From: a virus
Taxonomy: Duplodnaviria > Heunggongvirae > Uroviricota > Caudoviricetes
Virus record (IMG/VR): IMGVR_UViG_2711768059_000015
DNA: 30,972 bases
Reading direction: 5' to 3' (one strand)
The notes below the pieces were generated by a model. That model ran no database searches, had not been told where the DNA came from, and was given only the letters and a program-made list of their open reading frames with translations. Shown here piece by piece: positions 2,451 to 19,492 of the stretch. Position numbers and translations under genes: made by a program. Each line of letters starts with the position of its first letter. The first letter of the stretch is position 1.

Positions 2451-3278
2451 TTATTTAATCTGGATAAATGGTGTATTGGCACCACTGGTCATGTATTGCG
2501 GCAGTGTACCGTTCCACTTGTTGATGGCTTCCAGCTCCATGACGCCTGGGTTCTGGCGTAGAGCTTCGCCGCGTAAACGAATGGCATCGGCTTCTGCCTG
2601 GGCTTTTGTTCGAATGGCATCAGCCTGTCCGGCAGCTTCCGCACGTAGCATGTTGGCCTCCGCTTCACGTTGCTTGACTTCCTGCTCGCGCTGCAGGGTT
2701 TTCTGGTTTGCCGTGACTTTGGCGTTAATGCTGTCGATAACGGTTGGAGGGTATTCCGGTTTACCTACATAAGAGAGGCTCATTACCTGAATGCCGATGG
2801 GTGTCATCTCTTCCTGAATGTCTTTAAGTGCGGCATCCAGTAGTTCAGACTTGCCGCCGTCGATAAATTTGTCAGTGGTCATTTTGCTGGCCAGCCGATT
2901 GAGTGCGTCGGCAATTTTCTGGCGCAGGTCAGTGTCGGTAATGTCATCCACGCCTTTGCGGTAGGTCTGAAACACCGTGGTAACTTTGGATGGATCAACT
3001 TTGTAGGCCACACCGATGTGATAGCCGATGGTTGTACCGTCACTCATCTGGAAACTGAACGGTTCATCGTAGGTCTTCATTTGTTTGAAGGTGGGGAAGA
3101 TATAAACTTCAGTATTCCAGCCAGTCCAGTAGCGACCAACACCGACCACCTCACCGACACCTTTGTCGTCGCCTAGTTTATTTACCTTGATGCCAACATT
3201 ACCTGGTTCAACGCGATCGCAACCGACAAGGCCAATAGTCGGCAGAACAATGGCTAAAGCAAAAATAATTTTTTTCAT
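2451..3278 (-). CDS. SPFH/band-7 (prohibitin/HflK-C-like) domain lipoprotein
   Basis: 275 aa. N-terminal signal peptide with lipobox (LVGC). Central band-7 core and a C-terminal Ala/Glu/Arg/Gln-rich coiled coil typical of SPFH proteins. AAGGA RBS. Its start overlaps the upstream small membrane gene's stop (ATGA). Confidence 0.8.
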   Translation of the reverse strand: MKKIIFALAIVLPTIGLVGCDRVEPGNVGIKVNKLGDDKGVGEVVGVGRYWTGWNTEVYIFPTFKQMKTYDEPFSFQMSDGTTIGYHIGVAYKVDPSKVTTVFQTYRKGVDDITDTDLRQKIADALNRLASKMTTDKFIDGGKSELLDAALKDIQEEMTPIGIQVMSLSYVGKPEYPPTVIDSINAKVTANQKTLQREQEVKQREAEANMLRAEAAGQADAIRTKAQAEADAIRLRGEALRQNPGVMELEAINKWNGTLPQYMTSGANTPFIQIK

Positions 3279-3463
3279 CTTTTATCCTTAGTGAAAGAAA
3301 GACCCTTGTAAATGGCATAAATGCAGGGCGGGGTCAGAAACGCCAGTGCAAAGCCAGAAATAACTGCTATCGTATCCTTCATGGATATAAGGAACGGAAC
3401 GAATAATCCGTAAATGCATGCGATAATTGCCAGTAAAATTACTATTTTGAAATACAGTCTCAT
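3275..3463 (-). CDS. Small two-helix membrane protein (62 aa), translationally coupled to the SPFH gene
   Basis: Strongly hydrophobic sequence with two predicted TM helices. Stop overlaps the SPFH start (ATGA). Confidence 0.55.
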   Translation of the reverse strand: MRLYFKIVILLAIIACIYGLFVPFLISMKDTIAVISGFALAFLTPPCIYAIYKGLSFTKDKR

Positions 3464-3486
3464 TGGTCTGTGGTATCCCGATATTT

Positions 3487-3594
3487 TTAACCGACTGACA
3501 GCGCAATAAAGAGAATAATGATTTCAGTTAGTGTCAGCACTGTGGCAAGGATTAAAATCAGTTTTACTCTGTTTAATTCACGGTTGCTTTTCAT
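3487..3594 (-). CDS. Tiny single-TM membrane peptide (35 aa)
   Basis: Not in track. ATG at 3594, stop at 3487-3489. Product MKSNRELNRVKLILILATVLTLTEIIILFIALSVG (charged N-terminus then one hydrophobic helix). Candidate -10 TATAAT lies about 30 nt upstream on the minus strand. Confidence 0.35.
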   Translation of the reverse strand: MKSNRELNRVKLILILATVLTLTEIIILFIALSVG

Positions 3595-3639
3595 ATAAAC
3601 GGTTAGTAAAAAATGGAAGAATTATAGTCTTCTTAATAT

Positions 3640-4221
3640 TTAATGTGTCACTGGCGCTTCTGGCATACCATGAGTATTCAGGTCGTTAATCATTTCATCC
3701 AGAAGGAGTTCAAGCCCTTCGCGCCCCATAGCAGAGAGAATGAAACCATTATCAGGATCTGCGATGAGCATTTTTTGATAGAGAAACAGAACTCGCCCCA
3801 TGCCTTCAGTTTCGCCATATTTTTCAATAAATCCCCATTCGACATGGTTTTGCAGGGCAATGCGAAGTGGTCCTGGGTATATACTCATGCAACCATGTTT
3901 CCCCTTATAAATAACTGCGCGATCTGTCGTCCCGTTATCGTTAGGGATATCAATAGTGCCGTTCTTGTTTTCCTCTTCACTGATAAACGTTGCCACATAC
4001 AGCCAGCGCCATTGAGCAACCTTCATATCGACTGAAAATCTTCCCAGGAATCTGGCATCATCGGCTTCAGCAATACATTGCATGATTCTTAAGCCGTGCC
4101 AGTATGGATTGTCGTATTCACCATCATTAAGTCGCTGTACGGCCTCAACATAATCAATGGTTGTATTGTCAATTTTTATGCCATGAGCTGTCGCTTCTGG
4201 TTTGAATTCAAAATTGTTCAT
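3640..4221 (-). CDS. Hypothetical protein (193 aa), AT-rich accessory gene
   Basis: Track ORF 3640-4296 trimmed to the ATG at 4221 (MNNFEFKPE...) with an AAGGA RBS. Start overlaps the stop of the upstream 62-aa gene (ATGA). No family recognised. Confidence 0.6.
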   Translation of the reverse strand: MNNFEFKPEATAHGIKIDNTTIDYVEAVQRLNDGEYDNPYWHGLRIMQCIAEADDARFLGRFSVDMKVAQWRWLYVATFISEEENKNGTIDIPNDNGTTDRAVIYKGKHGCMSIYPGPLRIALQNHVEWGFIEKYGETEGMGRVLFLYQKMLIADPDNGFILSAMGREGLELLLDEMINDLNTHGMPEAPVTH

Positions 4222-4406
4222 AATGTTTGTTCCTTTGCTGGTGGAATAATCGTGTAACCCGCTCTTTTTGCCATCCACAGAAATGTATCCATGCAACCAA
4301 CGAATTCATTATCCAACAGATGTTTTGAGTAAATTACTTCACCATTTTCAATGGTTAGCAACACTCTTACTTTTTTATGTGTTATGTTCTGTTGTTTTTC
4401 TTTCAT
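4218..4406 (-). CDS. Hypothetical small protein (62 aa), coupled to the downstream 193-aa gene
   Basis: ATG at 4406 with a GGGAGA RBS. Overlapping stop/start with the next gene. Confidence 0.5.
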   Translation of the reverse strand: MKEKQQNITHKKVRVLLTIENGEVIYSKHLLDNEFVGCMDTFLWMAKRAGYTIIPPAKEQTL

Positions 4407-4410
4407 TTAT

Positions 4411-4524
4411 TTATCTCCCATATGCTTTGCGCAAATACAGGTTGGCTATATGAAGATAAGAATCTCCATGTTGTGCAATGAGGCAGGCAGTTTTATACGA
4501 TGCCTTATTTTTCAGGAAAGCCAT
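4411..4524 (-). CDS. Possible small basic protein (37 aa)
   Basis: Not in track. ATG at 4524 with an AGGAG RBS 8 nt upstream; stop at 4411-4413. Product MAFLKNKASYKTACLIAQHGDSYLHIANLYLRKAYGR. Could equally be an untranslated leader. Confidence 0.2.
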   Translation of the reverse strand: MAFLKNKASYKTACLIAQHGDSYLHIANLYLRKAYGR

Positions 4525-4610
4525 AACATAATCTCCTGCGAATAAAGGTTGCAACAATCCCCGGCGATAAAACCGTAATAAACATTCAGTGAATATTTAT
4601 TGTTATTGCG

Positions 4611-4802
4611 CTAATTCTTTTTGACTGCAGCTTTCGAATATTCACATGCAAAAGACAGGATTTCATCACCTAATGTTTTTGCATTCTGATTATTTGACAT
4701 CTGTAAAACTTGCGCAGCGCACAACAGACTATGAATGTTTATTGCAAATGAATCCGATGCCAGACAAATACCTTCGAAATTGTCATGGATATTACTATTC
4801 AC
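4611..4802 (-). CDS. Small protein (63 aa) paralogous to the N-terminal domain of the adjacent HTH protein
   Basis: GTG start at 4802 with AAGGAG RBS, the upstream gene's TAA stop, then a 5-nt spacer. The segment DSFAINIHSLLCAAQVLQ...LGDEILSFACEYS aligns with DSFALNIANLLSAVRTFH...LGIEVMEFIHEYA of the 150-aa neighbour at roughly 40% identity (by eye). Confidence 0.55.
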   Translation of the reverse strand: MNSNIHDNFEGICLASDSFAINIHSLLCAAQVLQMSNNQNAKTLGDEILSFACEYSKAAVKKN

Positions 4803-4807
4803 TGCTG

Positions 4808-5260
4808 TTACTCCTTTGCAGCATTGCTACCAGTCAATAACCACATCGGATCGCAGCCAAGAATATTTGCCAGTGGGATAAGCATACTGATGGTTGGTTC
4901 ATACTCTCCGCTCTCCCACTGGATGATGATTTCTTCATCAAGAGCGAGCAGCCTGGCGAGTTCGGCTGTTGTTAAGCCGCAGGCTTCGCGTTGGGTGCGA
5001 AGGTTAACCAGCCAGCTTTCAGGGAAGGATTGTTTTTGTTGTGCAGGAGAAGCAGCAGATAGAGCATATTCATGGATAAATTCCATTACCTCAATGCCCA
5101 GTTCCTTTGAGCGAGCACAATCCAGAAGATGGAATGTGCGTACAGCACTTAGCAAATTTGCAATATTTAATGCAAAGGAATCAAGTTCTAAGCCCTTAAG
5201 CGTAACACAGCCGCAGTTGATAAAATTAGTTGTTTCTGGAGTTGCTTTTAGTGTCTTCAT
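4808..5260 (-). CDS. Two-domain protein: unrecognised N-terminal domain plus C-terminal XRE-type helix-turn-helix
   Basis: 150 aa. C-terminal LRTQREACGLTTAELARLLALDEEIIIQWESGEYEPTISMLIPLANILGCDP matches the HTH_XRE pattern. First gene downstream of the candidate PL promoter; GGTGGA RBS. Confidence 0.7.
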   Translation of the reverse strand: MKTLKATPETTNFINCGCVTLKGLELDSFALNIANLLSAVRTFHLLDCARSKELGIEVMEFIHEYALSAASPAQQKQSFPESWLVNLRTQREACGLTTAELARLLALDEEIIIQWESGEYEPTISMLIPLANILGCDPMWLLTGSNAAKE

Positions 5261-5290
5261 ATATCCACCAACAATTTTAAATTGAATTAA

Positions 5291-5307
5291 ATCAAGTTAT
5301 AATTGAT
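5291..5307. promoter_or_regulatory. Candidate OL operator (17-bp ATCAA-N7-TTGAT palindrome)
   Basis: ATCAAGTTATAATTGAT matches ATCAAGTTAATATTGGT in the cI-cro intergenic region at 14 of 17 positions. Lies just downstream of the -10 of the candidate PL. Confidence 0.45.
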
Positions 5308-5313
5308 GGTGCG

Positions 5314-5342
5314 ATATTATGCTTTGGGAAATAGGCTGTCAA
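5314..5342 (-). promoter_or_regulatory. Candidate sigma-70 early-left promoter (PL-like)
   Basis: Minus strand reads TTGACA, 17-nt spacer, TAATAT (near-consensus -35 and -10). Located between the cI terminator and the first leftward gene. Confidence 0.5.
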
Positions 5343-5370
5343 GAAAAAATTGATATCGTATATTTCAGGC

Positions 5371-5394
5371 AGAAAAAAACGGGCAAAGCCCGTT
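5371..5394 (-). terminator. Rho-independent terminator downstream of cI
   Basis: Minus strand reads AACGGGC-TTT-GCCCGTT followed by a 7-T run, 12 nt after the cI stop. Confidence 0.55.
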
Positions 5395-5405
5395 AAAATC
5401 AAAGA

Positions 5406-6095
5406 CTAACCAAATCTGTTTATGTTGAATGGTACTGATGAGATCACTTTAGACTGGATATAAAGCAGAGCTAACCCCTCTTTTTCGATGCTCCATGGTT
5501 GATAATTGGGGTTATCAGATAACACCATGATTTTGCTTCCAATTTTTTGAAGCCTTTTCACGTAGCATTCTCCATCAAAACAAAATGCATAAATACCATC
5601 GCCATCAAAATAAGTTACTGTCTTATCAAGAAAAAGAAGGTCGCCAGGTGAGATTGTGGGAGCCATACTGTCTCCTCTGGCGTTACCTATTTCTATATTT
5701 TTGAATGCCCGATTTCCAACAAGACGTCGGGCATATTCAGGATCAAGTTCTATTGAGCGCACTACATCTATCAAGTCACCACGGACATGAGTTCCATCAC
5801 CGCAACTAAACTCAACATCAAGGACATTAAACACGACGCTATCTGTTCTTGTCTGGTGTTTCTCTTGCGAGGAAAAGGTTGGTGAGGAGTCTTCACCTAA
5901 GAACCAGGATTGTGGATAACCGCTAATCTCTGATAAATGCGCGAGCTTATCACTCCGTGGAAATGTTTTTCCTGTTGTCCAGTACTGCACTGATTGCGCA
6001 CTCACACCTAACTTGCGGGCCAGTTGAGCCTGAGTCCATCCTTTTGCTTTCAGCATCGCGGCTATTCGATTTTCCGTGTTTTTGACGTTCTTCAT
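5406..6095 (-). CDS. cI: CI-type prophage repressor (N-terminal XRE HTH, C-terminal S24 LexA-like peptidase domain)
   Basis: 229 aa. N-terminal HTH (GWTQAQLARKLGVSAQSVQYW). C-terminal S24 autocleavage domain with the catalytic Ser in GDSMAPT and a downstream Lys. Divergent from a Cro-like gene. Confidence 0.9.
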   Translation of the reverse strand: MKNVKNTENRIAAMLKAKGWTQAQLARKLGVSAQSVQYWTTGKTFPRSDKLAHLSEISGYPQSWFLGEDSSPTFSSQEKHQTRTDSVVFNVLDVEFSCGDGTHVRGDLIDVVRSIELDPEYARRLVGNRAFKNIEIGNARGDSMAPTISPGDLLFLDKTVTYFDGDGIYAFCFDGECYVKRLQKIGSKIMVLSDNPNYQPWSIEKEGLALLYIQSKVISSVPFNINRFG

Positions 6096-6228
6096 GACCA
6101 GGTCCTGTGGGTTTCTTTACAAGGATAAATCTTTACTTGATTTTAGTGTATTCGATCCTTTTGCAACTTGCATGTTAATTTAATCTTGATATATTCTTGT
6201 GTTATCAAGTTAATATTGGTGTTTTGCT
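6096..6228. promoter_or_regulatory. Divergent cI-cro promoter/operator region (PRM/PR with OR sites)
   Basis: 133-bp AT-rich intergenic region between divergent repressor genes. Candidate PR is TTGATA (6186-6191), spacer, TAATAT (6211-6216). Palindromic elements include CTTGATA-N11-TATCAAG (6185-6209) and the operator-like 17-mer at 6204-6220 overlapping the -10. Confidence 0.6.
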
Positions 6229-6528
6229 ATGAAAGGAAATGATTACGACGTACTTCGCGCATTAATTGCGCAAAATGCCATTGCACGAAACCTTGGTGTA
6301 ACTCCGCAAGCGGTGAATCAGTGGTTTTCAAAAAACACAATTCCTGCTCGTTTTGTTTTACGCGTATGTGAAGTAGTTGCATGGAAGGTCACGCCACATG
6401 GCTTAAGGCCAGATCTTTATCCTCACCCTGAAGATGGAATTCCTGATTCGTTACGCAAAATTTCAAATCCAAGCCTAGCGCGCACGGAAGATGGGCAGAG
6501 TGATTCATCAGAAATGTCCACGCGATGA
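6229..6528 (+). CDS. cro: Cro-like repressor (YdaS/Cro HTH family)
   Basis: 99 aa, divergent from cI. N-terminal HTH (LGVTPQAVNQWFS) typical of the YdaS/Cro-type family. Confidence 0.75.
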   Translation: MKGNDYDVLRALIAQNAIARNLGVTPQAVNQWFSKNTIPARFVLRVCEVVAWKVTPHGLRPDLYPHPEDGIPDSLRKISNPSLARTEDGQSDSSEMSTR

Positions 6529-6604: not shown

Positions 6605-7459
6605 ATGATGATCAATAAACAAAAAATAGTCAACCCTGAAAACTTGCCAGTTATTGAGTGGCAGGGAGTACGTGTAGTTACCACCGAAACGTTGGCGGCG
6701 GGATATGGAACAACGCCAATCCGTATACAACAGAACTACATTCGAAACGAAGATCGTTTCGTTGAGGGTAAACACTTTTTCAAAATCAGCGGTGATGAGC
6801 TGAAATCTTTCCGACTATCTTTTAGCGAGTCGGTTAATAAACATACAACATCACTTGTCCTCTGGACAGAACGCGGCGCTGCCCGCATGTCAAAAATCGT
6901 CGATACAGACGAGGCCTGGTCGTTCTTCGAAAAAATGGAGCAGGCGTATTTTCGTAAAGCAACGCCTTCTTCAAACACTATTCCAGACTTTGACGATCCG
7001 ATCGCTGCTGCTGAAGCGTGGATTGAAGCCAAAAAATCCGAACGCCTTGCTCTCGGGTATGCAGAGCGTCAGGCTCGCTACATCAGCAAACTCGAAAGCC
7101 ATCTCGCCGATGGCATCACTCCTGTGCAGTTCTGCAAACAACTCAACGGTGTAAACACTCGTCAGATTAATGCGTTCCTTGAAGAGCGTAACTGGCTGTA
7201 TGACGACCGTCCGGAGGCTATGTATCCGCGCTGGCGTGTAAAAGCGTATGCACGTGACCAATACCTGACTGAGCGTTCTGGGCAGGTTGAGCAGGAAAAC
7301 GGGGAAATGCGCGAGATTTTCAAACCACTCCTGAAGAAAAAAGGTGCCGCCTGGTTATATCGCCATTATCTGAACGGTGAACTACCGATGAAGAAAACAT
7401 GGGATGGGCTGTTTACCCATAACACTGAGCTCGCGAATCTTTTACAGGAGAACAAATAA
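6605..7459 (+). CDS. Antirepressor-like protein (N-terminal ORF6N domain, C-terminal KilA-C/Ant domain)
   Basis: 284 aa with AAGGGGA RBS. N-terminal region carries the ORF6N-type LWTERGA motif; the C-terminal half resembles the phage antirepressor Ant/KilAC domain. Confidence 0.75.
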   Translation: MMINKQKIVNPENLPVIEWQGVRVVTTETLAAGYGTTPIRIQQNYIRNEDRFVEGKHFFKISGDELKSFRLSFSESVNKHTTSLVLWTERGAARMSKIVDTDEAWSFFEKMEQAYFRKATPSSNTIPDFDDPIAAAEAWIEAKKSERLALGYAERQARYISKLESHLADGITPVQFCKQLNGVNTRQINAFLEERNWLYDDRPEAMYPRWRVKAYARDQYLTERSGQVEQENGEMREIFKPLLKKKGAAWLYRHYLNGELPMKKTWDGLFTHNTELANLLQENK

Positions 7460-7668
7460 TGCAAACCAAGACGTGTGTAACTGGTGATGTCGATCTGAAA
7501 CCTTGCCCGTTCTGCGGAAATCCGGAAGTACAACTCATTGAGGTGAAATATTTTCTGGATGGCGATGATGGTTATTACGTCGCATGTACTTGCTGTAACG
7601 CAAACCAGATCCCTGATTCGAAAGAACGTGCTGTTCATGACTGGAATCAGCGCGAAAACGCGGATTGA
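7459..7668 (+). CDS. lar: Lar-family restriction alleviation protein
   Basis: 69 aa with CPFCG and CTCC cysteine pairs characteristic of Lar-family zinc-ribbon proteins. Start overlaps the upstream stop (TAATG). Confidence 0.7.
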   Translation: MQTKTCVTGDVDLKPCPFCGNPEVQLIEVKYFLDGDDGYYVACTCCNANQIPDSKERAVHDWNQRENAD

Positions 7669-13298: not shown

Positions 13299-13787
13299 AT
13301 GGCTATTCAAATCTCAGTTGAAACTCTTTCCCCGATCACCCATAACCAAATCCCTGTCATTACTACCGAGCTTTTGGCACAACTTTATGGCACCGAAACT
13401 AATAACATCAAAGTGAACTATACACGCAATGCCGAGCGTTTTGTTTGTGGGAAACACTACTTCAAATTGGAAGGGGCTGAGTTGCGGGAATTTAAGAACA
13501 AGGTTACTCAAAGTAACTTAGTTGCACCGCGTACAAAGCACCTCATCCTCTGGACAGAACGCGGAGCAGTCCGTCACGCCAAAATGCTGGAAACCGATCA
13601 GGCGTGGGAAGTGTTCGAAAAACTGGAAGACTGTTATTTCAGCCAAAAACAACCACCAGCAGCACAAAACACCCCAACCCAAAATGATGGATGCGCATTA
13701 CTGATCCACTTCGATAAACACGGTCAGGTCGACTTCACGGAAAAACTACCCGCCGATGCGATGGTATGCACTCTGGAACGGTTTTAA
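13299..13787 (+). CDS. ORF6N-domain protein (antirepressor N-terminal domain only)
   Basis: 162 aa. Paralogous to the N-terminus of the 6605-7459 protein (shared NY.RN.ERFV.GKH.FK and LILWTERGA motifs). AAAGGA RBS. Confidence 0.7.
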   Translation: MAIQISVETLSPITHNQIPVITTELLAQLYGTETNNIKVNYTRNAERFVCGKHYFKLEGAELREFKNKVTQSNLVAPRTKHLILWTERGAVRHAKMLETDQAWEVFEKLEDCYFSQKQPPAAQNTPTQNDGCALLIHFDKHGQVDFTEKLPADAMVCTLERF

Positions 13788-13862
13788 AAATTTTCCCCGA
13801 ACGCTTTACGATCGTAAAAAGTTGAATATCCTGTTAAGAGTGGTTACTACGCCAAACAGCTT

Positions 13863-13889
13863 AAACCCGCCACTGAGCGGGTTTTTTTA
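13863..13889 (+). terminator. Rho-independent terminator
   Basis: AACCCGC-CACTGA-GCGGGTT followed by a T7 run. Confidence 0.6.
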
Positions 13890-14010
13890 TGCCTGAAAAA
13901 CGGTACAGGACGTTAAACGCGCTGGTGGTTGCGAATACTGGTCTTTCGGCTTGTATTTTTGTAAATCGATATATACTTATCTTGTGACCAGTAATGTCAG
14001 GGCAATTGAT

Positions 14011-14754
14011 ATGAATGAAGCTTGTTCTGTTGTTTTTGTTCATTCCCCGTTTGTTGTGCTCTTTGAAGGAAAAGAGCTCTCTCTGGAAAGTGGTAGTGCA
14101 CTTCTTGTCAGGGGGGGAGCTGGATCGTTATTGCCCTTTTCGGAATGTTTTCGGCGAATAAGTCTCAGTGAATCGACAATTATCCGTTACCTGTTGTGTG
14201 GAGACGAAAAACAGGATGTAGTTTTAGTCCGGCAAATACCACGATATCTTTGCGTGAGTTTTCCCAAGGCAGAATTGATGGGCATCCTGATTGATTATCT
14301 TTGTGAGGAAAAGATTCATACGGACAATTTAGCGGAAATGCTTTCCTTTTCGTGTCTGGCGTTTTTCTCATCAGAGAAAATGTTTTCGTCGTTTCTGACC
14401 GCGTGTATTGGCAATATTAGTGACAGGCTTAGTGCATTGTTTCGTACGGACATTGCAGCAAACTGGACTCTGAGAGATGTGTCTTCGCGGTTATGTATCA
14501 GTGAAAGTTTGTTAAAAAAAAGACTGAAAGAAGAAGGCACCTGTTTCAGTGAGTTGTTGCTTACAGAGAGAATGAGAATGGCAGCAATGCTGTTGAATCA
14601 ATCTCGTTGCGCCATCAACAGAATCGCTGCTCAGTGTGGCTATAATTTTACATCTTATTTTATCAGCGTATTCAGGAGTTATTTTGGTGTTACACCGGCA
14701 GGTTACAGGATGGCTGCATTCAATGAGATGAGTTTAAGTGTTACTCAAGAATAA
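14011..14754 (+). CDS. AraC-family transcriptional regulator, AppY-like (cargo/moron gene)
   Basis: ATG at 14011. N-terminus MNEACSVVFV and C-terminal AraC HTH (SESLLKKRLKEEGTCFSELL...AAQCGYNFTSYFISVFRSYFGVTP) closely resemble the E. coli prophage-encoded regulator AppY as I recall it. Markedly AT-rich relative to its neighbours; flanked by terminators. Confidence 0.8.
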   Translation: MNEACSVVFVHSPFVVLFEGKELSLESGSALLVRGGAGSLLPFSECFRRISLSESTIIRYLLCGDEKQDVVLVRQIPRYLCVSFPKAELMGILIDYLCEEKIHTDNLAEMLSFSCLAFFSSEKMFSSFLTACIGNISDRLSALFRTDIAANWTLRDVSSRLCISESLLKKRLKEEGTCFSELLLTERMRMAAMLLNQSRCAINRIAAQCGYNFTSYFISVFRSYFGVTPAGYRMAAFNEMSLSVTQE

Positions 14755-14778
14755 TTGAATTTTGCACTCATTGAAAAC

Positions 14779-14804
14779 AGGCTCGCTGCGGCGGGCCTTT
14801 TTTA
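14779..14804 (+). terminator. Rho-independent terminator
   Basis: GC-rich hairpin (GGCTCGC...GCGGGCC) followed by TTTTTT. Confidence 0.5.
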
Positions 14805-14933
14805 TATCCGCGCCACGTCCGGCGCACATCACATCAGATAACACCACACAAAAGGTATCTGCGGGTGCCTTTGACGGGGTGTTGTTTTTTTACGGGCCGA
14901 CAGTGGCCCTTTTTTATTTACAGGAGAAAAAGT

Positions 14934-15326
14934 ATGTCTGAACCCTTGTCCGGTTCCGGTACGGCTGCGGCGCTCGGCGGGGCGACGGTATTCGGGCTGT
15001 TTACCGGAACGGATTTCGGGATTGTGTTTGGGGCGTTCGCTGGGGCGTTATTTGTGGCAACGATGCCGCAGGCGCTTTCAGCCTGGCGTGTGGCGGCGCA
15101 TTTTCTGGTGTCGTTTATCGTTGGCGTGCTGGGTGCGCATGTGCTGTCAGCCTGGATTGCATCAAAAACAGGTTATGACGGTACATCGGCGGATGCACTG
15201 TGTGCGGTGCTGGTGGCGGTGGTGTCGGTGAAGATTCTCTCGTTCATCCACCAGCAGGATATTGCATCGCTGGTGTCCGGCCTGTTCTCCCGCCTGCGGG
15301 GTGGAGGAGGCGGCAATGTTAAGTAA
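14934..15326 (+). CDS. Putative holin (multi-TM membrane protein)
   Basis: ATG at 14934 with AGGAGA RBS. Gly/Ala-rich hydrophobic helices with a charged C-terminus. First gene of a cassette ending in an endolysin. Confidence 0.6.
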   Translation: MSEPLSGSGTAAALGGATVFGLFTGTDFGIVFGAFAGALFVATMPQALSAWRVAAHFLVSFIVGVLGAHVLSAWIASKTGYDGTSADALCAVLVAVVSVKILSFIHQQDIASLVSGLFSRLRGGGGGNVK

Positions 15327-15591
15327 CCTTCCCGGATTGCTGAATGTGGCGTTATGCACGGTTATCGTGCTGACGCTCTTTTTTTATCGTCGTCGTGATT
15401 CCAGACATAAACCGCTGATGTCATGGCTGGCCTGGTTGCTGATGCTGCTGTATGCCTTTGCGCCCCTCAGCTATCTGTGTGGTCGCCCGTTAGCAACGGG
15501 CTGGCTGGAAGTGTTTTTTAACCTGCTGTTCTGCGTGCTGGTGATACGCGCACGCGGGAACGTCACAAAAATCTTTCCATTGTTGAGGTGA
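15316..15591 (+). CDS. Second small membrane protein of the lysis cassette (holin/antiholin-like)
   Basis: ATG at 15316, overlapping the holin 3' end. Two or three hydrophobic helices. Immediately precedes the endolysin. Confidence 0.5.
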   Translation: MLSNLPGLLNVALCTVIVLTLFFYRRRDSRHKPLMSWLAWLLMLLYAFAPLSYLCGRPLATGWLEVFFNLLFCVLVIRARGNVTKIFPLLR

Positions 15592-15593
15592 AT

Positions 15594-15971
15594 ATGTCGG
15601 GTAAATTCAGATTCAGTCGTCGCAGCGAAAAGAATCTGGAGGGCGTTAAACCACAGCTGGTTGCTGTCGTTCGCCGTGCGCTGGAGCTGACGGAGGTTGA
15701 TTTCGGTATTACGGAAGGGCTGCGCACGAAAGAACGCCAGAAACAGCTGGTCGCGGAAGGGAAAAGCCAGACCATGAACAGCCGCCACCTGACCGGTGAT
15801 GCGGTGGATGTTGTTGCCTGGGTTGGCAGCCAGGTGTCATGGGACTTGCCTCTGTATGAGAAAATAGCGCAGGCATTTAAGCAGGCTGCCGCAGAGCTGA
15901 ATACCCCCATCGAATGGGGCGGTGAGTGGCGGTCATTAAAGGATGGGCCTCACTTTCAGTTGAAACGATAA
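15594..15971 (+). CDS. Endolysin, peptidase M15-type (L-alanyl-D-glutamate peptidase-like)
   Basis: About 125 aa. His and Asp residues in the SRHLTGDAVDV segment and a C-terminal WGGEW motif fit small zinc peptidase endolysins. Confidence 0.75.
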   Translation: MSGKFRFSRRSEKNLEGVKPQLVAVVRRALELTEVDFGITEGLRTKERQKQLVAEGKSQTMNSRHLTGDAVDVVAWVGSQVSWDLPLYEKIAQAFKQAAAELNTPIEWGGEWRSLKDGPHFQLKR

Positions 15972-15978
15972 ATAAAGC

Positions 15979-16016
15979 AAAGCCCCGGTTGTTGGAGCAA
16001 TCGGGGCTTTGTGTTT
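15979..16016 (+). terminator. Possible terminator or stem-loop after the endolysin
   Basis: AGCCCCG-N14-CGGGGCT hairpin followed by a T-rich tract. Confidence 0.4.
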
Positions 16017-16052
16017 ATGGATTCATTTTGTGAATGCGCATGGGGATCATTC

Positions 16053-16250
16053 ATGCCAGTAAAGCCTAACACGACGAAAGATAAATTTGGAGATGATCTG
16101 ATGATAAAAGCAGAAACCACCCCGCAGGGGGCTGATGATGCCGCAAAAATCATCGCGGTATGCCGGGGCATCAGACATATACTGACGCCAGTTGCATGGA
16201 TTATTTGTACTGCACTGGTTGCATACACAACAATTTATTTAAACAGATGA
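16053..16250 (+). CDS. Small protein with C-terminal TM helix (65 aa; alternative start 16101)
   Basis: Two candidate starts with GGGGA or GGAG RBS. C-terminal hydrophobic helix. Stop overlaps the next small ORF (ATGA). Confidence 0.3.
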   Translation: MPVKPNTTKDKFGDDLMIKAETTPQGADDAAKIIAVCRGIRHILTPVAWIICTALVAYTTIYLNR

Positions 16251-16333
16251 GTGCTGATTTTATTCGGGCAACGGCCTTTGCAATCCGCCTTGTGGCGGTC
16301 GCTGTTCTGATTTGGGCTGTGCGTTGGTGGTGA
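16247..16333 (+). CDS. Possible 28-aa hydrophobic peptide
   Basis: Not in track. MSADFIRATAFAIRLVAVAVLIWAVRWW. Coupled by ATGA overlap upstream and a 1-nt gap to the next gene. Confidence 0.25.
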   Translation: MSADFIRATAFAIRLVAVAVLIWAVRWW

Positions 16334-16334
16334 T

Positions 16335-16517
16335 ATGACGCGAAAACACTGGACACACAGAATGCCGCGAACGGCGGTGAAATGGGCACTGGTAGCGATA
16401 CTGGTGCCTTTTTTCCTGGTGGGCTGCGTCAGCCTGGATAAGGCGCGCCAGCTTTTCGATACAGCTTCTCAGGTCTGTGAAATTGTTGATAGTGTCCGGC
16501 AGTGTATGCAGAACTGA
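16335..16517 (+). CDS. Small lipoprotein (60 aa), candidate outer-membrane spanin-like lysis component
   Basis: Signal peptide with lipobox (FLVGC). Short mature domain with three Cys. Located after the endolysin. Confidence 0.4.
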   Translation: MTRKHWTHRMPRTAVKWALVAILVPFFLVGCVSLDKARQLFDTASQVCEIVDSVRQCMQN

Positions 16518-16559
16518 CCGACGGTGAGAGCAGAATATTTTTTAGAGGAGCGAAATTCT

Positions 16560-16910
16560 ATGCCATCACAAATCCCTCGTGCATGCCGTAAGCGAGGCTG
16601 TGCAGGCACAACGACGGACAGTTCGGGCTACTGCGATAAGCATCGCGGCGAAGGTTGGACACAACATCAACGCGGACTGAGCCGCCACCAGCGTGGCTAT
16701 GGCTCGAAATGGGATGCCATACGTGCGCGCATACTGAAGCGTGATAATCATTTGTGTCAGAACTGCCTGCGCAATGGGAGAGCCGTTGAAGCCAGAACTG
16801 TGGACCACATCATTCCGAAAGCGCATGGCGGTACGGATGCAGACGGTAATCTGCAGAGCCTGTGCTGGCCATGCCACAAGGAGAAAACAGCGCGTGAACG
16901 CATCAACTGA
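16560..16910 (+). CDS. HNH endonuclease (packaging-associated)
   Basis: ATG at 16560 with GAGGAG RBS. Cys-rich zinc-binding motifs and an HNH core (DHIIPKAHGG...N...LCWPCH). Directly upstream of the terminase small subunit, as in HK97-like cos phages. Confidence 0.85.
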   Translation: MPSQIPRACRKRGCAGTTTDSSGYCDKHRGEGWTQHQRGLSRHQRGYGSKWDAIRARILKRDNHLCQNCLRNGRAVEARTVDHIIPKAHGGTDADGNLQSLCWPCHKEKTARERIN

Positions 16911-17058
16911 TAATCGTTCTCATCTGTAAGGGAGGGGCGGGTCAAATCTCTGCAACCCTGGCTGCTCAGTACCGCCGCCTGACCCTTCCTCACATCGCCG
17001 CAGGTTCGAAAACTTTTTTTTGGAAATGTGAACAAACGATTGATAGGTAAGACCGATT

Positions 17059-17541
17059 ATGTCAGGACCTCCGAAAACCCCGCCACGCCTGCATTTGATA
17101 CGAGGCAACCCCTCAAAGCGTCCCGTTAAAGACCACAAAAAAACCGCTAAAAAGGATGAAAAAGGTCTTCCTAAAATTCCGCAGCATTTAGGGGCTCAGG
17201 GGAAGTACTGGTTCAGGCGAATGGCGGAAGAGCTGAATGCGGAAGGGATCATTTCTCAGCTTGATGCACGTGCGCTCGAGTTGCTGGTGGAAGCCTACAC
17301 CGAATATCGGCATCACTGCGAAACACTCGATGTTGAGGGGTATACTTACCGCACGGAAACGCAGAGCGGTGATGTACTGATTAAGGCGCACCCCGCGGCG
17401 GCAATGAAAGCGGATGCCTGGAAGCGGATCCGGGCAATGCTTGCAGAGTTTGGTATGTCACCGGCAAGCCGGGCTAAAGTAAATATCGCCGGACCGGATG
17501 ATGTTGATCCGCTGGCGGAGCTTTTAAAAGCGAGAGACTGA
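17059..17541 (+). CDS. terS: Terminase small subunit (P27-type)
   Basis: 160 aa with a basic N-terminus and a pattern typical of P27-family small terminase subunits. Immediately upstream of the large subunit. Confidence 0.8.
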   Translation: MSGPPKTPPRLHLIRGNPSKRPVKDHKKTAKKDEKGLPKIPQHLGAQGKYWFRRMAEELNAEGIISQLDARALELLVEAYTEYRHHCETLDVEGYTYRTETQSGDVLIKAHPAAAMKADAWKRIRAMLAEFGMSPASRAKVNIAGPDDVDPLAELLKARD

Positions 17542-19298
17542 TGGCAAAAGTGGCTGACGGGATCCGCTACGCCGAACGTGTTGTTGCAGGAGAAATTGTT
17601 GCTGGCGAATTTGTCCGCCTGGCCTGCCAGCGTTTTCTTGATGATCTGAAGTACGGCGAAGAGCGGGGGATTTATTTCAGTGAACCCCGTGCGCAGCACA
17701 TCCTGAATTTCTACAAATTTGTGCCTCATGTAAAAGGGGCGCTGGCAGGCCAGCCCATTGAGTTGATGGACTGGCATGTATTTATCCTCATTAATATTTT
17801 TGGTTTTGTCATTCCGCTGGTCAATGAAGAGACCGGGGAAGTTGTCATGCGCAGCGATGGCAGCGGACGTCCGGTGATGGTGCGCCGGTTCCGGACGGCG
17901 TACAACGAAGTCGCCCGTAAAAACGCAAAATCAACTCTGTCATCGGGTATCGGCCTGTATATGACGGGGGCAGATGGTGAAGGCGGAGCTGAGGTGTATT
18001 CAGCCGCAACCACGCGTGACCAGGCCAGAATCGTGTTTGAAGACGCCAAAAATATGGTCAGAAAAGCCCGGTCGACACTCGGGCGGTTGTTTGATTTCAA
18101 CAAGCTGGCGATTTACCAGGAGCAGAGCGCATCAAAATTTGAACCGCTTTCTTCGGATGCAAACAACCTGGATGGTCTGAACATCCACTGCGCCATTATT
18201 GATGAGCTGCATGCACATAAAACCCGTGACGTGTGGGACGTTCTGGAAACGGCAACCGGTGCTCGTCTGCAGTCCCTTTTATTTGGTATCACCACGGCAG
18301 GGTTTAACAAGGAAGGGATTTGTTACGAGCAGCGTGATTACGCCATCAAGGTATTGCGTGGCTATAACAGCGACGTGGAGGGCGCGGTAAAAGACGACTC
18401 CTACTTTGCGATTATTTACACCCTCGATGAGGGAGATGATCCGTTTGATGAAACGGTCTGGCAGAAAGCGAATCCCGGCCTGGGCATCTGTAAACGCTGG
18501 GATGATCTGCGTCGCTTGGCGAAAAAAGCGAAAGAACAGGTCTCTGCACGGGTGAATTTTTTTACCAAACACATGAATGTGTGGGTAACAGCAGAGTCTG
18601 CCTGGATGGACATGATTAAGTGGGAGAAGTGCGAATACATTGCCCCACGACATGAGCTGAAAACGTATCCCATGTGGGTCGGCGTTGACCTTGCTCATAA
18701 GATTGATATCTGTGCGGCGGCAAAACTCTGGCGAACGGATAACGGGCATGTTCATGCCGATTTTAAATTCTGGCTTCCGGAAGGACGGCTGGAACGATGC
18801 TCGCGGCAGCAGGCAGAACTTTACCGGAAGTGGGCGGAGATGGATAAGCTGATTCTGACGGATGGTGATGTTATCGATCATGCTCAGATAAAAAGTGACT
18901 TACTGGAATGGATTGGTGGTGAAAACCTCAGGGAACTGGGATTTGACCCGTGGAGCGCGATGCAGTTCAGCCTGGCACTGGCTGAAGAAGGGATACCGCT
19001 GGTGGAGGTTCCGCAGACGGTTCGCAATCTGTCAGAGGCCATGAAGGAAACGGAATCACTGGTCTATGCCGGGCGTTTCCATCACAGCAATCATCCGGTC
19101 ATGAACTGGATGATGTCTAACGTTACGGTAAAACCGGACAAAAACGACAATATCTTCCCGAATAAATCCACGCTGGAAGCCAAAATCGACGGTCCTGTTG
19201 CGATGTTTACAGCAATGAGCCGGATGCTGGTCAATGGCGGTGAACCGGAGCCGGATCTGTCTGAGCATCTGGTCAGCGTTGGTATCCGCTCGCTTTAA
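17541..19298 (+). CDS. terL: Terminase large subunit
   Basis: 585 aa. N-terminal ATPase and C-terminal nuclease architecture. Position between TerS and the portal. Confidence 0.9.
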
Positions 19299-19309
19299 CC
19301 GAGGTCATT

Positions 19310-19492
19310 ATGTTTCTGATAATTCTCACGCCACTGGTGGGCGTGCTGGGGGCGCTTTTGCTGTCGTATGGCACATGGCTGATTTATCCCCCGGCAGGTT
19401 TTGTTGTTGCCGGGGGGCTGTGCCTGTGCTGGTCGTGGCTGGTTGCGCGTTATCTCGATCGTGGTCACCGGGTCGCCTCCGGAGGTGAGTAA
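19310..19492 (+). CDS. Small two-TM membrane protein (60 aa) between terminase and portal
   Basis: GAGGT RBS. Hydrophobic sequence with two predicted TM helices. Stop overlaps the portal start. Confidence 0.4.

Follow-up and report, generated by a model that had tools for sequence, protein, structure and literature searches.

A Cnr-related protein and two conserved small proteins encoded in the early-left operon of a phiP27-like prophage of Escherichia coli

The satellite P4 carries cnr, a gene that controls its plasmid copy number and whose family occupies the epsilon-alpha interval in 90% of P4-like elements (PMC8628076). P4 Cnr is a single domain of ~106 amino acids (aa), encoded upstream of alpha in the same operon. 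Among the satellites of the phage-inducible chromosomal island (PICI) type, EcCIMP1 has been experimentally verified to be functional (PMC11773190). Two further described systems resemble the locus treated here in the arrangement or position of their genes. In type II toxin-antitoxin (TA) operons, a small upstream gene overlaps a larger downstream one. In phage lambda, the small, non-essential open reading frames (ORFs) of the exo-xis region (orf60a, orf61, orf63, orf73, ea8.5, and ea22) lie between the immunity region and xis/int and are transcribed from the leftward early promoter. Here, we analyzed three adjoining genes, encoding proteins of 37, 62, and 193 aa, on the minus strand of a 30,972-nucleotide (nt) stretch of Caudoviricetes DNA (IMG/VR record IMGVR_UViG_2711768059_000015; "the window" refers to this whole stretch). 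The largest protein of this trio was found to be homologous to P4 Cnr, which is a new result.

Relationship of the 193-aa protein to P4 Cnr

The 193-aa gene (3640..4221, minus strand) encodes an acidic protein (isoelectric point [pI] 4.8, charge -13) that matched phrog_1515 with an E value of 8e-92, a family for which an exhaustive profile search recovered 127 representatives at 50% identity. By sequence comparison, the gene is under purifying selection, with ratios of nonsynonymous to synonymous substitution rates (dN/dS) of 0.17-0.18 against relatives that share 67-70% protein identity. A confident AlphaFold2 model of the protein, built with 22 homologues, reached a predicted local distance difference test score (pLDDT) of 89 and a predicted template modeling score (pTM) of 0.84. 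From the N terminus onward, the model comprised a small beta meander, two short helices, a long helix (residues 64-87), a three-stranded sheet (89-114), two helices, a hairpin (152-162), a final helix (164-184), and a disordered tail. The model had a structural neighbor in neither PDB nor BFVD, and no conserved catalytic-looking motif was observed in the protein. Searches of Pfam, NCBIfam, and PADLOC returned nothing meaningful for any of the trio, and none of the three proteins had a match in PADLOC-DB at E values up to 1.

A relationship to P4 was hinted at by two members of the 193-aa family, which carried precomputed Pfam hits, labeled "faint," to DUF5375. The same domain is annotated in the P4 record for ORF106, encoded directly 5' of the alpha primase gene; we take this ORF (NP_042037.1) to be cnr. 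In profile comparisons with this protein, a 24-sequence family profile aligned to P4 ORF106 with an hhalign probability of 62% (E value of 7.8e-5), and a 71-sequence profile did so with a probability of 89% (E value of 2.2e-6 over 93 aligned columns). The corresponding score of 37.9 lay 13 standard deviations above the scores of 200 shuffled Cnr sequences (11.0 +/- 2.0, maximum of 18.4). The remaining 11 P4 proteins were matched by the family profile with probabilities of at most 0.5%. In the reverse direction, when the hidden Markov model (HMM) of the family was run against 452 six-frame ORFs from P4 and four P4-like loci, the Cnr ORF was the sole match (E values of 4.5e-6 to 1.4e-5; the next E value was 2.2). 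Searches by phmmer with Cnr alone against 124 family representatives gave a best E value of 2e-4, with 9 below 0.01.

In the Cnr-like part of the protein (3643..4032, minus strand), residues 64-178 align to residues 7-100 of Cnr, nearly its full length, and are followed by the ...APVTH tail. The N-terminal 63 residues and a beta insert (89-110) had no Cnr counterpart in the hhalign alignment; in contrast to single-domain Cnr, the 193-aa protein is thus nearly twice as long and has an extra N-terminal domain as well as the insert. A ...PVxH tail is common to both proteins: the C termini, which fall outside the aligned region, read KAPVLH in Cnr and EAPVTH in the 193-aa protein. Across the family, His is the last residue in 61 of 71 members, and P-x(2-3)-H is present in 45. 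We propose the ...PVxH tail as a defining feature of the Cnr family. Taken on its sequence, phrog_1515 probably represents an enlarged branch of that family; because the 193-aa protein falls below the Pfam threshold, the assignment is one at the superfamily level.

Distant members of the 193-aa family were found outside complete phages, in small integrative islands of the PICI type (loci L101, L102, L106, and L108-L120), where they occupy an operon after alpA and match the phrog_1515-family profile at E values of 1e-57 to 1e-87. The order of genes in these islands (int, alpA, antA or ash, DUF4222, small overlapping ORFs, the 193-aa family, one or two copies of a family of 116-123 aa, and a Toprim/DUF927 primase-helicase) is the architecture of EcCIMP1. 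The 193-aa family was encoded directly 5' of the 116-123-aa family in 11 of 12 loci fetched via the latter alone, and the two are fused in a 336-aa protein (P0099) of one Enterobacterales genome; the window contains no member of the 116-123-aa family. Of three island primases compared, two were similar to P4 alpha by BLAST, with 38% identity over 684 aa in L102 and 34% over 359 aa in L120. A DUF927-only protein of locus L104 had no direct match to alpha and matched the C-terminal part of the L120 primase. In the islands, the 193-aa family is likely the counterpart of Cnr for alpha-like primases. EcCIMP1-type PICIs resemble the phage locus in having tightly packed early operons of small overlapping genes that include phrog_1515, but they differ from it in that their Cnr-like gene is preceded by unrelated small acidic proteins and the 62-aa and 37-aa families are absent. 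In the L120 island (E. coli YJ6), genes annotated as encoding a DUF2824 protein and a phage DNA ejection protein were present downstream of the primase gene (14,500-19,400), as reported for EcCIMP1, and this island region matched 563 of 5426 complete E. coli genomes.

Two conserved small proteins encoded upstream

The two smaller genes of the trio are stacked immediately upstream of the 193-aa gene. The 62-aa gene (4218..4406, minus strand) overlaps the 193-aa gene by 4 bases (4218-4221, ATGA), reading ...TTATGAAC..., and just 4 nt separate its ATG from the stop codon of the 37-aa gene (4411..4524, minus strand), such that the ribosome-binding site (RBS) of the 62-aa gene, GGGAG, lies within the last two codons of the 37-aa gene. 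RBS-like sequences were also present for the 37-aa gene (AGGAG) and the 193-aa gene (AAGGA). All three ORFs are genes beyond chance. Their coordinates, strand, ATGA overlap, and RBS are as first described in the initial annotation, and its statement that the trio was unrecognized also stands: RefSeq lists the 62-aa protein (WP_000660644.1) and the 193-aa protein (WP_053289839.1) as hypothetical, the 37-aa ORF is annotated neither here nor in relatives, and no publication on the trio was found by protein accession, PHROG number, or phiP27 locus tag.

The 37-aa ORF had been put forward in the initial annotation as a possible gene worth attention, and its pattern of conservation bears this out. 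Its start codon, stop codon, Shine-Dalgarno sequence, and frame were kept in 49 distinct homologous sequences, in which insertions and deletions occurred only 5' of the start codon; variable columns were distributed 15/7/24 over the three codon positions; and dN/dS was 0.06-0.15, with 14-17 synonymous versus 13-14 nonsynonymous differences from a diverged group. On these comparative grounds it is a real small-protein gene, one that is conserved and has been missed by standard annotation. The encoded protein is basic (pI 9.8), with a family consensus of MTF(I/L)K.KA..KTA.L.A..G...IA.L(F/Y)L(R/K)KAYG(R/K), and our guess is that it is helical. Besides those of Escherichia, prophages of Citrobacter, Salmonella (Fels-1), Klebsiella, Raoultella, Cronobacter, and Pseudescherichia carry recognizable homologues of 32-37 aa, all ending in ...L(R/K)KAYG(R/K/Q), and a homologue was also found in an Aeromonas phage record. 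Distant variants from Klebsiella and Pseudescherichia were matched by phrog_2180 (E values of 1.4e-5 and 6e-5), and the window-type sequence was not.

The 62-aa protein matched phrog_340 with an E value of 3e-24, and its structure model consisted of a beta-hairpin (residues 14-30) and a helix (39-48). In profile alignments, 40 of 44 members of its family aligned to the C-terminal region of phrog_4792 or phrog_2379, both annotated as anti-repressors (profile positions ~191-239 of 268 and 129-176 of 187). From these alignments, the 62-aa protein is a stand-alone copy of the C-terminal domain of the anti-repressor-annotated proteins, and the sharing of this domain suggests a protein-binding module. 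The N-terminal part present in those proteins is missing from the 62-aa protein, which corresponds to their C-terminal segment only, and no DNA-binding fold was detected. A Rosetta-stone link between the 62-aa family and the 116-123-aa family of the PICIs, raised by a weak HMM alignment, was ruled out (hhalign probability of 0.3%). The 62-aa, 37-aa, and 116-123-aa families had no match among the P4 proteins, epsilon and ORF151 included.

To what extent the three genes are found together was assessed by scanning ~190 related loci with profile HMMs of the 37-aa, 62-aa, and 193-aa families. The trio is contiguous, with the same ATGA overlap, in phiP27-type prophages. A second E. coli type, with a 193-aa protein 67-70% identical to that of the window, has a 5-nt spacer instead of the overlap, and in Citrobacter, Klebsiella, Raoultella, and Escherichia phage CharmingMan the order 37-62-193 is kept with 1-3 unrelated genes between members. 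In Rahnella, Yersinia, and Pseudescherichia, and likewise in every satellite-type island, the 193-aa family was present and the 62-aa family absent. Conversely, Fels-1 and 10 of the 37 contigs retrieved via the 62-aa family had no 193-aa family member. A closer association was seen for the two small genes: of 123 distinct neighborhoods, 122 had the 37-aa family upstream of the 62-aa family, whereas 11 had no 193-aa family member, and in one E. coli protein of 110 aa (P0213) the two genes are joined in one frame by a read-through or frameshift change. An extra gene of 340-640 bp lies between them in about one-third of the neighborhoods. The 37-aa and 62-aa proteins may be a true functional pair, on account of both this near-constant co-occurrence and the natural fusion, yet shared phage ancestry could explain why they are found together.

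These distributions also bear on the layout and origin of the trio as first interpreted. Of the 20 pairs of neighboring same-strand genes in the annotated part of the prophage, 6 overlap by 4 nt, and such overlaps are the rule in the related satellite operons. The tight packing of the trio in this phage reflects operon compaction, with no obligate two-component system. The low G+C content seen in the initial annotation is real (34% for the 62-aa gene, 39.5% for the 37-aa gene, and 43.5% for the 193-aa gene versus 49% for the window), but it is a regional feature and no peculiarity of the trio: the whole immunity and early-left block (~3200-6400) is AT-rich, including cI (42.6% G+C) and a neighboring 63-aa ORF (35%). 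The recent acquisition proposed on that basis is not supported, given both this regional AT-richness and the order of the trio, which is unchanged in prophages with only ~45-55% protein identity.

The early-left operon of a phiP27-like prophage

The trio is carried by a lambdoid, phiP27-like E. coli prophage. The chromosome of E. coli UTAK-5 is 100% identical to positions 3300-5400 of the window and has the prophage integrated beside mlrA, and the phage phiP27, which encodes Shiga toxin (Stx) type 2e, is 93% identical to the region, with its genes L06 and L07 as counterparts of the 62-aa/193-aa pair. Among 5426 complete E. coli genomes, 388 matched the trio region. Every gene from the integrase (1-1314) to a cI-like S24 repressor (5406-6095) is carried on the minus strand. 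The 5' part of the operon runs from a 150-aa helix-turn-helix (HTH) regulator through a 63-aa ORF to the 37-aa, 62-aa, and 193-aa genes. These are followed by a 35-aa membrane ORF, a 62-aa membrane protein, an SPFH lipoprotein, DUF5406, DUF4222, xis, and int.

Transcription of the cI-like gene is predicted to end at a terminator 3' of it (5394..5378, minus strand), and just past this terminator lies a leftward early promoter-like site (TTGACA-17-TAATAT; 5314..5342, minus strand), from which transcription of the trio's operon presumably starts. A consensus scan of the minus strand from 5342 to 3200 yielded no second promoter-like site, although a weak promoter could escape such a scan. A repeat search revealed operator-like palindromes (ATCAAG-N-TTGAT) at 5291-5307 and 5338-5354, which bracket the leftward promoter, and a third copy at 6204-6220 in the cI/cro intergenic region. 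The cI-like repressor would bind these palindromes and thereby control the leftward promoter; with operator-like palindromes around its early promoter, the trio should be silent in the lysogen. At the RNA level, nothing of note was detected: a hairpin 3' of the 193-aa gene (-3 kcal/mol, z of -1.0) and folding upstream of the 37-aa ORF (z of -0.4) were not significant, and an Rfam scan gave no relevant match.

The first gene of the operon (4808..5260, minus strand) encodes the 150-aa HTH regulator (HTH_3; phrog_4836, labeled "CII-like"). The 63-aa ORF that follows (4611..4802, minus strand; phrog_4587) is unannotated in the source genome and annotated in relatives; it is paralogous to the N-terminal domain of the 150-aa protein (39% identity across 46 aa, E value of 1e-8) but lacks an HTH, and its product could be a truncated partner of that regulator of the dominant-negative type. 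On the far side of the trio, the 35-aa ORF (3487-3594, minus strand), located between the 193-aa gene and the 62-aa membrane protein gene, has one predicted transmembrane helix and no clear RBS; it is open in 32 of 32 distinct relatives, whose DNA is too conserved to separate coding from noncoding constraint. The SPFH (band 7) lipoprotein gene (2451-3463, minus strand) overlaps the 62-aa membrane protein gene (phrog_1130) by ATGA. As speculation by analogy, a phage SPFH protein encoded near a "CII-like" regulator recalls the control of lambda CII by HflK/C-FtsH.

Two features of the rightward half of the prophage may be recorded here. A Lar-family restriction-alleviation gene (7459-7668, plus strand) forms part of the rightward early operon, flanked by the ORF6N and Rha genes. 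An IS66-family insertion element (ISEc23; tnpA, tnpB, and transposase), at ~13,300-16,190 on the plus strand by coordinates transferred from the source genome's RefSeq annotation, interrupts an ORF6N-domain gene just 3' of the Q antiterminator gene, in a region that we take to be where phiP27 carries its stx2e genes.

Candidate functions of the trio

We propose that the trio consists of co-transcribed accessory genes of the leftward early operon, which would be switched on upon loss of the cI-like repressor. In both position and leftward early transcription, this is comparable to the lambda exo-xis region, although no sequence or structural similarity was found between the trio and the exo-xis ORFs, and profile searches of PDB sequences, which presumably include lambda Orf63 and Ea8.5, came back empty. 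Within the 193-aa protein, a core made up of a helix, two helices, a hairpin, a helix, and the ...PVxH-COOH tail would correspond to the 106-aa Cnr. The protein would most likely regulate a replication initiator or helicase early after induction, by stoichiometric protein binding, and its target could be either the phage's own replication machinery or the alpha-type primase of a co-resident satellite. This is the reading that we favor, though tentatively, at somewhat short of an even chance. The 37-aa and 62-aa products would be separate conserved small early proteins that nearly always occur together.

Several observations weigh against a Cnr-type role. The homology relies on profile methods, a single Cnr sequence, and small search spaces: Cnr was compared as a single sequence, a scan for a broader profile having given only near-identical P4 copies. 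With the DUF5375 model, members of the 193-aa family score below the Pfam threshold (one member reached an hmmscan E value of 0.16, and the 193-aa protein itself was not hit), and no Cnr structure was found with which to compare the fold. Cnr reportedly limits P4 replication, in work attributed to Terzano in 1994 and Ziegelin in 1997, by binding the alpha primase-helicase/initiator and altering its origin binding, and this known partner is missing in cis. The replication module of the window phage, in its rightward operon, comprises a 330-aa protein, a DnaC-like ATPase, and a DnaB-like helicase; no alpha-type primase-helicase is encoded in the phage, and its replication proteins were not similar to alpha by BLAST. 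Likewise, the primase/helicase of CharmingMan, another phage carrier of the 193-aa family, had no BLAST relation to alpha. Whereas P4 cnr shares an operon with alpha, the 193-aa gene belongs to a complete lambdoid phage, and in phages its place is the left operon, remote from the replication genes. Even in the islands, where one or two copies of the 116-123-aa family intervene between the Cnr-like gene and the primase gene, the arrangement is not identical to cnr-alpha.

Some of these same points would be accommodated if the Cnr-like fold had been reused against a host or defense protein unrelated to replication, making the 193-aa protein an early host-takeover or anti-defense factor. Its place in the early-left operon is that of other accessory genes of lambdoid left operons, it is acidic and without a conserved catalytic motif, its N-terminal domain and insert have no equivalent in Cnr, no alpha partner is available in the phage, and the Lar gene shows that anti-defense cargo is carried by the same phage. 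We regard this as the main alternative, albeit an unlikely one, given that no similarity to a known anti-defense protein was found in the libraries searched, that the sole functional homologue found is a replication regulator, and that the steady linkage of the family to satellite primase genes points to replication. Somewhat less probable again is that the 37-aa and 62-aa proteins form a functional unit regulating the lysis-lysogeny decision or derepression, in the manner of the small exo-xis ORFs of lambda, with the 193-aa gene as an unrelated neighbor. Their near-invariant order, irrespective of the 193-aa family, the P0213 read-through fusion, the domain common to the 62-aa protein and the anti-repressor-annotated PHROGs, and the regulators encoded next door (the 150-aa HTH protein and its 63-aa paralogue) would all fit such a unit; the gene that intervenes in a third of the neighborhoods, the descent of the loci from related phages, by which shared ancestry may account for the synteny, and the failure to detect a DNA-binding fold speak against it.

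A more specific version of the replication-regulator reading is that a helper-type phage captured the copy-number brake of satellites as a weapon against them. Made from the early-left promoter upon induction, the 193-aa protein would then leave the phage's own replication alone and bind the alpha-type primase-helicase of P4-like or PICI satellites resident in the same cell, lowering their replication; we consider this improbable. Last in our estimation, and very improbable, is the TA or abortive-infection module suggested by the layout in the initial annotation, in which the 62-aa protein would neutralize a toxic 193-aa protein and so protect the lysogen or stabilize the prophage. A TA or abortive-infection module must be expressed in the lysogen. 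That the trio is an addiction or defense cassette is unlikely because no toxin, antitoxin, or defense model in Pfam, NCBIfam, or PADLOC was matched, no promoter of its own was found in the consensus scan, and it is positioned behind an operator-flanked early promoter in a repressed operon. The small-before-large overlap is indeed shared with type II TA operons, but 4-nt overlaps are ordinary in this prophage and pairing is not obligate, the families being separated by other genes or solitary in many relatives. The 193-aa protein is, moreover, homologous to a replication regulator: a match to structural or recombination proteins, which the initial annotation had named as evidence against a module of this kind, was not what was found, and the match to P4 Cnr is of a different sort.

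As a protein-binding regulator of replication, our favored reading, the 193-aa protein would have differing significance depending on its target. A phage copy directed at satellite primases would represent a new type of phage countermeasure against satellites, and one directed at the phage's own replication would represent an unrecognized regulator in relatives of Stx phages. The trio is hypothetical or unlabeled across hundreds of E. coli genomes, including prophages of Shiga-toxin-producing strains. The result worth keeping is twofold: homology to Cnr in a phage without Cnr's known partner, and a conserved small gene that annotation misses. The link between phrog_1515 and Cnr gives this family its first testable function and indicates that a protein family for replication control is common to temperate phages and satellites, both P4-like elements and EcCIMP1-type PICIs.

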